Shown here one piece after another: positions 14,199 through 18,547 of a stretch of 64,000 nucleotides of DNA (its first letter is position 1; every line of letters begins with the position of its first letter). The notes beneath the pieces are model-generated. The model was given only the letters and a program-made list of their open reading frames with translations. It did no database searches and was not told the origin of the DNA. A program made the position numbers and the translations under genes. The stretch is from a virus (taxonomy: Duplodnaviria > Caudoviricetes), in IMG/VR virus record IMGVR_UViG_3300014205_000007, positions 34,090 through 98,089 of that record; one strand, 5' to 3'.

Positions 14199-14245
14199 GG
14201 GGTATCCTACGGATAAATTGCGATTGGGCCGCGCGCCCCTTATTG

Positions 14246-15283
14246 TTACGATGGATTGACGGCCACGCCGGTCGTGTTGGCGGATGGCGCCCCGCCGTCA
14301 ACGTACATCTGCGCCAAGCTCGTGGCATCGGTGCCAAAATCCGTAATACCCACCATGGTATTATCCTTCATCAATAGGAGTCCACCCGAAGACGCCGCCA
14401 GCGTTGCAAGACCGCTCATCTGCGTGGACGTGGATTTGATATTGTTGATAAAGGTGCAGCGATCAAACTTCTGCCACCGATCCATAGAGGCCGAGGCGGA
14501 GGTGATAATTCCGAGCGGCGTCGATGCTGATGTCTGGAACGGGAAGTTACACTCGATGAACGTATTGCGGGGCGTGCCGGCGGCAAATTCGAGCGAAGCG
14601 TTTGCCGCCGAGCGCGCGACGGTGTCAAGCCCAACGTTGCAGCCGACAAAGGTATTCTCACCCGTAGTTCCAGTAATAAGCAACGAACGCGACCCAGCAT
14701 CGGCAGCCGACGCCGCGTCGGCCATGCCGCCAAAATCGACATTCGAGTAGAAGTTGCGGCCAGCAGAATCTGTCCAGCAAATCTGGTTCGTTCCACCCGT
14801 CGAGAACCCGTTGAATAGCGAGAAATTTGCAAACAGGCATCCCGAGGCTGTCACCGTTACGAAGTTCCCAGAGCCAAACGTGGCTTGGGTATAAGTTCCA
14901 GTCGGCGGGGCAATGCGCGCCCGCTGGGAAACCATCGTCGGCGCTGTTTCGCCGATGAGATGGCAGGCATTCTTGGACCAGACCAATGTGCCTGCCGTAA
15001 CCGTTGAATCAATCGTCTGGGCCAGCGCTGTAGACAACCGCGCCGATCCCGAAGAGGCACCATTGCCGACAAGCACGCAAACATCGTTGTTTCCTGCCGT
15101 CATTTTGGCGTGCGCACGGTAAAGGGTAGCGAAAGCCGACTGAGGGCTCGTGCCATCGTTTCCATCAGAGCCGGAAGCGGGGTTCACCCAGTACCAGTTT
15201 CCAGTGAGGGGGATTCCGCCGAGACCACCCACGAGCGGGACCCCCCAAGATGAAACGCCATTCGGAAAGTTTGTAATTGGCAT
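14246..15283 (-). CDS. virion structural protein (beta-helix-like)
   Basis: MPITNFPNGVSSWG start; WVNPASGSDGNDG...AFATL motif; downstream of MCP. Confidence 0.6.
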   Translation of the reverse strand: MPITNFPNGVSSWGVPLVGGLGGIPLTGNWYWVNPASGSDGNDGTSPQSAFATLYRAHAKMTAGNNDVCVLVGNGASSGSARLSTALAQTIDSTVTAGTLVWSKNACHLIGETAPTMVSQRARIAPPTGTYTQATFGSGNFVTVTASGCLFANFSLFNGFSTGGTNQICWTDSAGRNFYSNVDFGGMADAASAADAGSRSLLITGTTGENTFVGCNVGLDTVARSAANASLEFAAGTPRNTFIECNFPFQTSASTPLGIITSASASMDRWQKFDRCTFINNIKSTSTQMSGLATLAASSGGLLLMKDNTMVGITDFGTDATSLAQMYVDGGAPSANTTGVAVNPS

Positions 15284-15368
15284 AGCCGTTTTGTCCTGTG
15301 CCAGTGTTTCAAATTAGGTAGTGCCGACGCAGGACAAAACGGCTGGTGAGGTGTTGTTACAGATTCTC

Positions 15369-16466
15369 CTACTCAGGGGAATCGCTCATCCCTTGATGCT
15401 TGCGAAGATAGTCCGCCGCGCGACGCATCAGTTCTGGATCATCGCGCAATTTACCGATGCCACGATTACAGGCACCGCAGAGAAGCTGGCGAACCTTGCC
15501 AGTCCGATGGTCGTGATCAACGGATAGCCACCGCAGTTTTCCGTTCTTCATTTCAGTCTCAGGACTGCGGCAGATGGCACACTTACCATCTTGTTCGGCA
15601 TGCATGCGGTCATAATCCGCCAATGTAATCCCAAACGCTCTCAATAGCGCACCATTGCGCTCGACCTCCGGGAAGGCAATCCGCCGCGCGCGGTCGTAAG
15701 CCCTTTTACCCTCTGCGCTAGTGGCCGCGCCGAGAGTGCGGTGCATGGTCTCTTCCCACGCCCAGTTCCCTGGCCCGATAGGAAGCTCGACGTTAATGGG
15801 GACCAACCTCGTATTAAGCCGGAACCCAGAACGCTCGATGTCCCTCTCGAAATCCTCCAAAGAGGCCCACCCGACATGCCCCAGCGCCCGCGCAACCGTC
15901 CCCGCCCAAAGGCGCCGCACATTAGATGAGACGCGGTAAGTCTCTCTGCGTTGCGGCGCGTCAGGGTTGTCCTGCGGCAGAGCGGCGTAGTGTTTGCGGG
16001 CTTTGTTGCACGCCTCAATCGCTTCAGCCTTAGTGCGGAAGCGCCCAACGGCAATCTGCTTGTAGTTCACAGTTATCTTGGCGAACCACTTCTTTTTGGT
16101 CTTGTCCCAAGACACGCCAGCGCCGCGATTGCCCTTGTAATGTTTACGTGTCGTTTCCGCTGGCGTGAGCAGCTTCAGGTTGGCAAAGCGCAGATCAAGG
16201 TAATCCCCGTTCTTCGGAGATATGTTGTGCTTCGGCCATTCGCCGTTGACATAGAACCAAGCCAAGCGGTGAGCCAAATAAAGGCGATCATCTACCTTGA
16301 TGTACTTCCGACCATTCGCCGCAACCGATCCAGGATCGCGTGCGAACGATGCTGGCCGCGCAGTCTCACGATCCTTCCAAGCGAAGGCGCCAGCTGATGG
16401 ACTGTAATCCAGCAGCTCTTTCAGGCGTTGATGTGAAACTGCGTTTTCCACGTTCTTCCTAGTCAT
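15369..16466 (-). CDS. free-standing homing endonuclease: degenerate HNH + AP2 + endonuclease VII domain
   Basis: YLAHRLAW HNH scaffold; GVSWDK...WFAKI...GRFRT (AP2); QDGKCAIC...VDHDH...LLCGACN (EndoVII). Start at 16466 after GGAG. Confidence 0.85.
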   Translation of the reverse strand: MTRKNVENAVSHQRLKELLDYSPSAGAFAWKDRETARPASFARDPGSVAANGRKYIKVDDRLYLAHRLAWFYVNGEWPKHNISPKNGDYLDLRFANLKLLTPAETTRKHYKGNRGAGVSWDKTKKKWFAKITVNYKQIAVGRFRTKAEAIEACNKARKHYAALPQDNPDAPQRRETYRVSSNVRRLWAGTVARALGHVGWASLEDFERDIERSGFRLNTRLVPINVELPIGPGNWAWEETMHRTLGAATSAEGKRAYDRARRIAFPEVERNGALLRAFGITLADYDRMHAEQDGKCAICRSPETEMKNGKLRWLSVDHDHRTGKVRQLLCGACNRGIGKLRDDPELMRRAADYLRKHQGMSDSPE

Positions 16467-16497
16467 CCGTAAATCTCCAATTGATGCCAATTCCTCT

Positions 16498-16526
16498 ATT
16501 GTAGAGGCGCCGATTGGAGATGTCCA
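16498..16526 (-). promoter_or_regulatory. sigma70-like promoter of the endonuclease gene
   Basis: TGGACA-N17-TACAAT. Confidence 0.65.
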
Positions 16527-16536
16527 GTGCATTTAG

Positions 16537-16586
16537 GGCTATGAGCGTTACACGTTTAGAACTTAAGTCACATAACGCTCATAGCC
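16537..16586. repeat. perfect 14-bp inverted repeat GGCTATGAGCGTTA
   Basis: arms 16537-16550 and 16573-16586. Confidence 0.9.
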
Positions 16587-16603
16587 GAATTTATACTTAT
16601 TTA

Positions 16604-17515
16604 TCAAGACGCTGGCGTTGACGCCCAGATGCACCTTGGATCGTTGTACGTACTGATGTAGCGCTCGTACCCCTTAATCAGCACGTTGTCCGTGTGGTTG
16701 TCCACCCACATATCCGTCTCGAACGGAATGCGCTCCATCATCACGAGGCCATCGATGTTGGTCTTGATGAACCAGGCATAGGGTGAGGTCAGGTAGTCGT
16801 TGATCGTGTATTCGCGGATACCGGCCGGCATTGACAGGACCGCGTTGACGGTGTTGTTTGCCGTATCGGGCTGCAATTCCGTCTTCATTAGACGTTCTGC
16901 AACTGCGGTGAGCTGTACCGGGACAACCAGCTTCTGAGCCCTGGCATTGATCTTGAGGCCGGCTTCATCCACGAACTGCGCGCGAATGTTCTGGCATGCC
17001 TGGATCAGGGCCGTTTCCGTCAGATCGAGCTGAACGGAGAAGGTATTGGCCCAAGTACCCCCATCATATGGATGCGCAGTGGACGAAAGAGGCACCGCAT
17101 CACCGCCGACCGTCGGATCGTAGGTAGCACAGTTGTTGAGGACGTTGGCCGACTGGATTTCCTTGAACTGATTGAATGAGTTTGCCAAGGGGAGCTTCAT
17201 AAGATTGAAGTCCTTGACGTACTGGTTGTCGTCCAGCGATTCACGGGTGATCGAGTACCCCAATCCAACCTGGAAGGGCTGGGCATTGTAGATGTAGCGC
17301 TGGCCCGAGTTGTTATCGAATGCCGTGGCGCCGCCTTCCGTCTTGAGCTGGGCCAATCCAAGAATACGCATCTGCGCCTTGGATTCAACTCGCAGCGTTG
17401 CCTTATGGACGGTAAAGAGGTCGCTCCACTCCTTGGGAAGCTGCTGGTATTCGCCAGCAACGTCGTAAAGGCCCGGCAGGAGCAAGGACTTGATTTGTGC
17501 GGTATTAACAGCCAT
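16604..17515 (-). CDS. major capsid protein (Mu gpT-like family)
   Basis: LLLPGL, KTEGG, LGYSITRE, DAVPLSSTAHP, KLVVP, AWFIKT, KGYERY motifs; 303 aa after the decoration gene. Confidence 0.85.
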   Translation of the reverse strand: MAVNTAQIKSLLLPGLYDVAGEYQQLPKEWSDLFTVHKATLRVESKAQMRILGLAQLKTEGGATAFDNNSGQRYIYNAQPFQVGLGYSITRESLDDNQYVKDFNLMKLPLANSFNQFKEIQSANVLNNCATYDPTVGGDAVPLSSTAHPYDGGTWANTFSVQLDLTETALIQACQNIRAQFVDEAGLKINARAQKLVVPVQLTAVAERLMKTELQPDTANNTVNAVLSMPAGIREYTINDYLTSPYAWFIKTNIDGLVMMERIPFETDMWVDNHTDNVLIKGYERYISTYNDPRCIWASTPAS

Positions 17516-17576
17516 TGGATGTTATCCTTGGATAGCGGGGTCTATGCGGACCCAGGTTGAGAGAAAGGGTTTCCGC

Positions 17577-18212
17577 TTAGGTGCCCAGCGAGCCAGTGCC
17601 AGAGAGGTTCGGCTGCACGAGAACCCAGTTGTAGGCGCCCGTTGCCGATCCAGAGTAGGGACCGTTGGTGCCCGGCTGAATGCCCAGTGCCCCACCTGCA
17701 CCCGGAAGACCGCCGTAAAGGCCGATGATCCGGAACGGCAGCGTGGCGGTGTTGGCGACACCCGAGAGATAGGCCCCAGACTGGCCGGTCTGCACGTTAC
17801 CCGTGCCGATGGTGATTTCTGCGTTGAGGCCGATGTCGGTGAAGGCCACACCAGTGCCATCCGACTGGACGAGGAATACCGATCCGGGGGTGACGGGGAT
17901 GATCTTGGCCACGATGGTGCTCTGCGCCGTCGAAGCGACATCGGCACCCGGCCAGAAGTTCGAGGAGGTCATCTTGCCCTGTGCGGTGGAGAGATACTCC
18001 ACCCCATCGAAGATGCCTGCCAGCTTGGCGATGCCGTCGGCGGCGGCCCACTGGGCAATATAGCCGGTATCGAGAACCTTGATGGGGTCGCCGGTAAAGA
18101 TTTTGGTGGTGTCGTTGTAGGCGATGTTCTTCGGGATCATCTGGAAATTGGACGGCGCCCCGACGGCAGAAGTCTGCTGGCGGAGGCCGAAGGGAGCATT
18201 GATGTTTGCCAT
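17577..18212 (-). CDS. capsid decoration/cement protein
   Basis: MANINAPFGLR...IFTGDPI...GIFDGVEY; immediately upstream of MCP. Confidence 0.65.
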   Translation of the reverse strand: MANINAPFGLRQQTSAVGAPSNFQMIPKNIAYNDTTKIFTGDPIKVLDTGYIAQWAAADGIAKLAGIFDGVEYLSTAQGKMTSSNFWPGADVASTAQSTIVAKIIPVTPGSVFLVQSDGTGVAFTDIGLNAEITIGTGNVQTGQSGAYLSGVANTATLPFRIIGLYGGLPGAGGALGIQPGTNGPYSGSATGAYNWVLVQPNLSGTGSLGT

Positions 18213-18547
18213 GGATGGGGCGCCCAAGTTTGCCTTGGCTTGCCCTTTGGCCCGATGCGCGAGCTGTCAAGGATTCCTTGACAGTTGGACAGCGCAAGAC
18301 AGACGTGGGGAGCGAAGCCAAATGAATTGACCTGTCGGCGCACCACGCCTACGATAAAGGTGATGCCGACGCTCGCTCCCCTCTTTCGACTCAACCGCCC
18401 CTGGCGGTGGGAGAGTAAATTCCCGATCACATCGCGTGATGGGTACGCCTCAAGAACTGCGTGTGAATTGAGTTAATGCCGATTGCCCAGTGATTCGTCA
18501 ACAGGTATGATTGGGCTCAAGGGGCATTCAGAGTACAGGAAGGCAGA

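Follow-up and report, generated by a model that had tools for sequence, protein, structure and literature searches.

The closest described parallels to the locus considered here are found among the homing endonucleases of phages. [quoted passage not shown] I-TevI, segB, and Aeh1 mobE have in common a hairpin that sequesters the ribosome-binding site, together with an internal promoter (PMC2988022). F-CphI of cyanophage S-PM2 belongs to the DHHRN family of homing endonucleases, which carries the catalytic motif of endonuclease VII (Endo VII) (PMC6083498). Here we examine a 64-kb stretch (the window) of the uncultured virus record IMGVR_UViG_3300014205_000007, which is 98,089 bp long and has direct terminal repeats. 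In this window, a perfect inverted repeat lies between the gene for the major capsid protein (MCP) and a gene for a free-standing homing-type endonuclease, and its arms copy conserved codons of the MCP gene.

The genes concerned are on the minus strand, in the order MCP gene, spacer, endonuclease gene, and fibre-like gene. The spacer between the MCP and endonuclease genes is 137 nt long and AT-rich, with a GC content of 0.41 versus 0.56 across the window. The inverted repeat is situated in this spacer, between the MCP stop codon and the endonuclease promoter, and consists of two 14-nt arms (16537-16550 and 16573-16586) that are 100% complementary. They are separated by an AT-rich spacer or loop of 22 nt (16551-16572), which in minus-strand RNA forms four further pairs, three of them G-U, and is thereby reduced to a loop of 14 nt. 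The inverted repeat occurs only once in the 98-kb genome, and the arm was therefore rejected as a dispersed repeat.

The promoter-proximal arm with its flanks (16527-16552) is an inverted, degenerate copy of a segment of the MCP gene, which we refer to as the mimic. The 22-mer at 16531-16552 of the plus strand matches 18 of 22 positions of MCP nucleotides 16678-16657 of the minus strand, which encode I-K-G-Y-E-R-Y-I. When one 2-nt gap is allowed, the similarity extends to 28 nt, with the antisense of MCP positions 16657-16684 (codons V-L-I-K-G-Y-E-R-Y-I) aligned to 16527-16552. Three of the four differences in the 22-mer lie within the GYERY codons, all of them at third codon positions (GGC/GGG, TAT/TAC, and CGT/CGC) and synonymous, and the fourth converts the Lys codon to TAG. 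No non-self match on either strand of the window is better than this one (the next best is 16/22), and matches of at least 18/22 are expected about 0.005 times per window and about 2e-5 times within 150 bp on either side, so that chance similarity was rejected. The bare 14-mer with three mismatches is not significant (8 found versus 4 expected), which indicates that the flanks of the arm carry the signal. The MCP-proximal arm (16573-16586) repeats the core of the site in direct orientation, but the similarity to the MCP gene does not continue into its flanks; with flanks included, the two arms match each other at only 16 of 22 positions, fewer than the promoter-proximal arm and the MCP gene. 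The repeat is a non-chance derivative of the MCP site. The first-pass annotation, made by a model from the sequence alone, had reported the 14-bp repeat, the extended 18/22 match, the synonymous third-position differences, and the location of one arm 10 nt upstream of the endonuclease -35 element. A repeat search recovered the same arms, and the other three observations held as well.

Inverted copies of this site recur at other loci. More than 200 loci homologous to the window MCP were found, and K[GAS]YERY is kept in MCPs down to 31% identity. In what follows, loci with an endonuclease gene behind the MCP gene are designated HEG+ and loci without one HEG-; L-numbers denote comparison loci. 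The K[GAS]YERY codons of 77 distinct, unbiased alleles were combined into a position weight matrix 18 nt long. With it we scanned each locus between the MCP stop codon and the start of the nuclease gene, or over 120 nt at loci without a nuclease, against a background of 1.05 million positions of natural sequence and, in a second test, against dinucleotide shuffles. With the natural background, inverted matches at p<0.01 were present at 6 of 42 HEG+ loci (the window, L169, L285, L171, L174, and L323) versus 2 of 159 HEG- loci (L018 and L011), whereas direct-orientation matches were present at 1 of 42 and 1 of 159, respectively. The dinucleotide-shuffle test gave inverted matches at p<0.05 at 8 of 42 HEG+ and 8 of 145 HEG- loci. 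When each spacer was aligned to the antisense of its own MCP gene, scores of at least 22 were obtained for the MCP segment harboring the site at 5 of 41 HEG+ loci versus 1 of 143 HEG- loci, and other MCP segments and the direct orientation gave 0 to 1 such alignments. Of the five HEG+ alignments, those of the window, L323, and L282 map onto the site itself, and those of L196 and L184 map elsewhere in the segment. As seen in these comparisons, the recurrence of inverted site copies before homologous or analogous nuclease genes behind this MCP family is a new finding.

The same arrangement is found at a distant locus, L169, whose nuclease and MCP are 34% and 49% identical to those of the window. 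There, the MCP stop codon is followed by a 13-bp perfect palindrome on the site copy, a promoter (TTGACG-N17-TATACT), a hairpin that would hide the Shine-Dalgarno sequence, and the nuclease gene. Comparison thus supports the earlier interpretation in part: the arms originate from the K-GYERY coding site of the capsid gene and imitate it, and mimics of this kind are tied to endonuclease genes located behind this capsid family. In L323 the alignment spans 44 nt, the copy reads A-Y-E-K-Y where the MCP of its own clade has KAYERY, and the -35 element aligns with the antisense of the T-D-N codons; as judged from these sequences, the copy in this case tracks the MCP clade. The copy of L285 aligns over 32 nt. 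Relative to the promoter, the copies are found 5 to 8 nt before the -35 element in the window, L323, and L285, over the -35 element in L262, and over the -10 element in L194. Within the subclade of the window, a single inverted copy directly after the MCP stop codon is present in L018 (HEG-), in L001, which has a different nuclease, and more weakly in L019. In L282 and L278, a 5'-truncated HNH_3-AP2 remnant is located approximately 30 to 90 nt after the MCP stop codon, directly after the inverted copy; its promoter and about 100 codons are gone, and the site copy remains.

The endonuclease of the window is preceded by a putative sigma-70-type promoter (TGGACA-N17-TACAAT, 16498-16526, minus strand), with the -35 box at 16526-16521 and the -10 box at 16503-16498. 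It matches the consensus at 10 of 12 positions, and one such promoter was found versus 0.3 expected. On its upstream side, the nearer arm stops 10 nt short of the -35 box and the 18-nt mimic stops 7 nt short of it, so that the copy abuts the promoter without overlapping it. A second inverted repeat on the minus strand (16473-16521) has its 5' arm in the promoter spacer and its 3' arm on the Shine-Dalgarno sequence GGAG (16478-16475). The predicted stem consists of 9 bp (AUCUCCAAU/AUUGGAGAU) with the -10 box in the loop, and the fold has an energy of -21.3 kcal/mol (z=-2.7). As the 5' arm is in the promoter spacer, this hairpin would be formed only by read-through RNA from the MCP gene. By sequence, the arrangement is that of a ribosome-binding site-sequestering hairpin with an internal promoter, and the same design is seen in L169, L174, L285, L264, and L298.

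The endonuclease gene (15369-16466, minus strand) encodes a protein of 365 aa with a degenerate HNH_3 domain, an AP2 DNA-binding domain, and a C-terminal nuclease with the Endo VII motif (DHHRN), as judged from Pfam (HNH_3, AP2, and Endonuclease_7, E=3e-25), homologues, and structural matches in the PDB (Hpy99I, T4 Endo VII, and plant AP2 domains). The open reading frame list had given a form of 387 aa whose start, at 16532, precedes the promoter. The start is most likely the ATG at 16466, because GGAG is located 8 nt before it and the 365-aa form fits the homologues, so that the longer call is probably 22 codons too long. About 40 full-length homologues with 35 to 53% identity were found. In an alignment of 32 sequences, D317, H318, H320, R326, N334, and two CxxC pairs are invariant (pattern CxxC...DH.H...R...CxxCN), and by this measure the Endo VII catalytic motif is intact. 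Invariance of these residues is characteristic of the F-CphI or DHHRN family of homing endonucleases (PMC6083498). In the HNH_3 domain of the window family, the catalytic His is replaced, which suggests that this domain is probably a binding module; the motif is intact in the types represented by L034 and L046.

The distribution of the endonuclease is that of a homing element, patchy at one locus among syntenic relatives. The window and L001 have an endonuclease, and the close MCP relatives L002, L017, L018, L019, L020, and L021 do not; a search of the remainder of the L002 record for a homologue found none. L001 harbors the same nuclease domain in the same place with a different N-terminus. 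The best viral homologues checked, with full-length or N- plus C-terminal matches, are all encoded directly behind an MCP gene of the same family. The slot after the MCP gene is occupied by at least four architectures (HNH_3-AP2, HNH_3-EndoVII, HNH_3-AP2-EndoVII, and Cys-rich-EndoVII), as seen at L001, L034, L040, L046, L053, L072, L137, and L169, and in the unbiased MCP sample 20 of 76 loci, about a quarter, are HEG+. A search for co-conversion tracts from recent endonuclease transfer found no pair of loci with endonuclease genes more similar than their MCP genes.

These features can be set beside the known systems. As in I-TevI, there appears to be a non-coding look-alike of the presumed target at the enzyme's own promoter (18/22 here, 15/20 in I-TevI), and as in I-TevI, segB, and mobE, a hairpin in read-through RNA would hide the ribosome-binding site, with transcription from the enzyme's own promoter starting within that hairpin. 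Unlike I-TevI, the nuclease is free-standing and not intron-encoded, it combines an Endo VII-motif nuclease with an AP2/dead-HNH binding module in place of a GIY-YIG domain, and its presumed target lies in the neighboring capsid gene. The copy also differs in that it is inverted, is duplicated as a perfect palindrome, and is located upstream of the -35 box and not over the promoter. Like F-CphI, the enzyme is a free-standing phage nuclease that carries an Endo VII-type motif at its C-terminus and is encoded beside a conserved gene; it differs in that its N-terminal half consists of degenerate HNH_3 and AP2 and that its neighbor is a capsid gene and not psbA. A target mimic is proposed here, and none is mentioned for F-CphI in the abstract of PMC6083498. 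With the HNH_3-AP2 phage homing endonucleases (PF13392 and PF00847), the enzyme shares an N-terminal region of 180 residues that matches both domains, and L034 and L046, with an intact HNH_3 motif, fill the same slot behind the MCP gene. The window family differs from these in the loss of the HNH_3 catalytic His and the C-terminal fusion of a second nuclease domain.

The interpretation that we favor is that the repeat is a homing-site mimic bound by the endonuclease, serving as an operator in the manner of I-TevI, and we assign it a probability of about 45%. Our confidence is held at this level because binding, cleavage, and regulation are all deduced from sequence. A copy of a conserved site that is inverted, adjacent to a promoter, and recurrent across lineages is what the I-TevI precedent predicts. 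As mimics recur at HEG+ loci, the K-GYERY coding DNA is most likely the target of the endonuclease. We propose that an endonuclease lineage has settled at the 3' end of this MCP family and would recognize the conserved K-GYERY DNA. An inverted, non-coding copy of the site, 7 to 10 nt upstream of its own -35 box and duplicated in this phage into a perfect palindrome, would then be bound by the dead-HNH/AP2 module without productive cleavage, and in this way the enzyme would adjust its own transcription, as is the case for I-TevI. The palindrome would also fold into an 18-bp hairpin in RNA that reads through from the MCP gene, and the second hairpin would hide the ribosome-binding site, so that the nuclease would be made only from its own promoter. 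We read the arms as possible homing-site mimics with the same reserve, since binding by the enzyme and the sign of the regulation are part of what we infer. The palindromic form might provide either two binding sites or an added RNA hairpin, which we suggest tentatively. The first-pass annotation had spoken of a tandem operator; both arms are indeed present, but their geometry is palindromic and not tandem. Taken as a whole, the design could represent an I-TevI-type target-mimic operator on a free-standing Endo VII-motif nuclease behind a capsid gene, a proposal for which the odds are slightly less than even. The broader generalization, that several unrelated endonuclease architectures parked behind capsid genes keep an inverted target copy at their own promoter as a self-sensing operator, is less likely than not.

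Several observations weigh against the operator interpretation. In the window, the copy is upstream of the -35 box and does not cover the promoter; activators more typically occupy such a position. No recognizable mimic is present at about 85% of HEG+ loci, among them L040, the closest endonuclease homologue examined (49% identical), which has an unrelated inverted repeat; the earlier expectation that repeat arms would co-vary with the MCP allele found no instance there. L018, a HEG- locus, has retained one near-perfect copy, and no promoter follows it. This copy may be a relic of nuclease loss; it matches that of the window at 15 of 18 positions, a divergence probably no smaller than that of neutral sequence between the two phages. 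No single binding domain is common to all the nucleases that accompany mimics, as L001 is without HNH_3 and AP2 and L323 without Endo VII. The mimics of L282 and L323 co-vary with their own MCP genes at the Arg codon, which gene conversion would also give, and the homology is longer than an operator needs.

A rival explanation is that the capsid message simply ends in a hairpin, formed in RNA or DNA, that serves as a stabilizer, processing site, or insulator separating the nuclease promoter from a strongly expressed MCP gene; the hairpin would derive from an old inverted duplication of MCP sequence and would not be bound by the nuclease. The hairpin is very stable (-24.5 kcal/mol, z=-6) and is the dominant structure also in its sequence context, and hairpins of unrelated sequence follow the MCP gene, before the endonuclease gene or the next gene, in most relatives. 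The arms are perfect in both the window and L169 though their sequences differ, and hence pairing itself seems to be maintained. At L018 and L019, both HEG-, pairing between the single copy and the GYERY codons is predicted in the minimum-energy fold. On the other hand, the repeat is not a rho-independent terminator: the loop is 14 to 22 nt, the tail reads CUAAAUGCAC, there is no U tract, and no terminator-like site is present in 16350-16750. Nor does it belong to an Rfam family, the sole match being a microRNA-type hairpin below threshold (25.7 bits versus a gathering score of 82). The two strands have similar folding energies (-24.5 versus -23.2), so that the strand-specific extension of the stem by G-U pairs is real but uninformative. 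The differences between mimics and MCP genes are not biased toward changes compatible with G-U pairing (0 of 4 in the window, 1 of 7 in L323, 2 of 5 in L169, and 0 of 3 in L018), which does not support long-range pairing with the MCP codons. We accordingly rejected a long-range interaction in the mRNA between the mimic and the GYERY codons, despite its prediction for L018 and L019. Finally, a function of the hairpin alone leaves unexplained the enrichment of single, unpaired inverted copies at HEG+ loci only. We consider this explanation unlikely.

We judge it similarly improbable that the copies are non-functional scars. On this account the nuclease breaks DNA at or near the MCP site, repair by template switching or fold-back synthesis sometimes inserts an inverted copy, gene conversion keeps the copies similar, and the promoter arose later inside the inserted sequence. 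Such an origin would account for homology beyond any plausible operator (28 nt in the window, 44 nt including the -35 element in L323, and 32 nt in L285), for the persistence of the copy where the nuclease is absent (L018) or truncated (the L282 remnant), for the co-variation at the Arg codon in L282 and L323, and for a register relative to the promoter that differs between loci. A neutral 14-bp perfect palindrome should decay, however, and two lineages whose nucleases are only 34% identical carry one. The mimics of L282 and L323 moreover share a derived change and a block of 12/12 identical nucleotides in otherwise diverged spacers, which suggests constraint. We also know of no documented mechanism for repeated inverted insertion approximately 60 to 130 nt past a break that would spare an essential gene, and this counts against a scar.

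Very improbable is the first-pass alternative of an antisense or guide RNA directed at the capsid genes of competitors or their mRNA, whether made from the hairpin or from the copy in the 3' untranslated region. In the sense transcript, the promoter-proximal arm does run antisense to the MCP site, and it is closer to alleles of other phages (17/17 nt with L007) than to the window's own. Against this, there is no match to a known RNA family, the genome has no partner nuclease other than the endonuclease itself, the arm allele is rare among relatives, and a perfect intramolecular stem ties up the antisense stretch.

The arms had also been interpreted as displaying a susceptible capsid allele to which the phage's own allele is the immune counterpart. 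The HEG- loci L003 and L007 do carry the codons of the arm. About 95 MCPs with precisely the arm codons emerged from a pattern scan, which by its design favors the motif. In the unbiased sample of 76 MCP loci, few of either class have the exact arm allele (2 of 56 HEG- and 1 of 20 HEG+), so that the expectation that relatives without the endonuclease would carry it does not discriminate between the classes. The HEG- locus L002 has the codons GGC TAC GAG CGC TAC, one base from the window's own allele, and the site codons of the window (TAC and CGC) are simply those that its codon bias favors (TAC 12 : TAT 2). Together with the single near-perfect copy at L018, these results do not bear out a distinction between susceptible and immune alleles. 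There is a weak signal, not corrected for phylogeny, that HEG+ MCPs use rarer site codons than HEG- MCPs (Mann-Whitney p=0.02). At the Glu codon of GYERY, HEG- MCPs have a strong preference for GAG beyond gene-wide usage, with 14 GAA codons observed versus 29.6 expected, and HEG+ MCPs do not (18 versus 19; likewise not corrected for phylogeny). In L001 and L017, which have the codons GGA TAT ... TAT ATC CC, the K-GYERY-IP region is itself a local palindrome of 7 to 8 bp that forms a hairpin in the predicted mRNA fold.

To our knowledge, it is very rare for the target of a free-standing homing endonuclease to be known before any bench work. Where the promoter of a nuclease is accompanied by a conserved look-alike of a neighboring coding site, sequence alone would point to the target. 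If the broader generalization above holds, both the recognition site and the regulation of an uncharacterized homing endonuclease could be read from its genome, and the palindromic form found here would serve a dimeric enzyme of the Endo VII type. Such a look-alike would also extend autoregulation of the I-TevI type from intron enzymes of T4 to a different nuclease family, one that colonizes capsid genes in uncultured phages of soil and water, and would supply compact parts, namely a site-specific binder and its operator. If the copies are repair scars, they would still mark where the enzymes cut.

The MCP gene itself (16604-17515, minus strand, from the open reading frame list) encodes a protein of 303 aa with a Mu gpT-like HK97 fold (Pfam PF10124, E=7e-6), and a search of the phage GenBank collection returned one distant MCP match only. 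Short contigs of this phage from positions 14200-18300 of the window, with no differences, are present in a groundwater metagenome of 2022 and in a landfill metagenome of 2018 from which the phage probably comes; in the groundwater set, the repeat is not covered. A search of public sequencing runs listed no RNA run that contains the region. In L001, L002, L017, L018, L019, and L021, whose MCPs are 79 to 83% identical to that of the window, three different genes are found downstream of the MCP gene. This suggests that the 3' end of the MCP gene is a mosaic boundary between the head and fibre modules.

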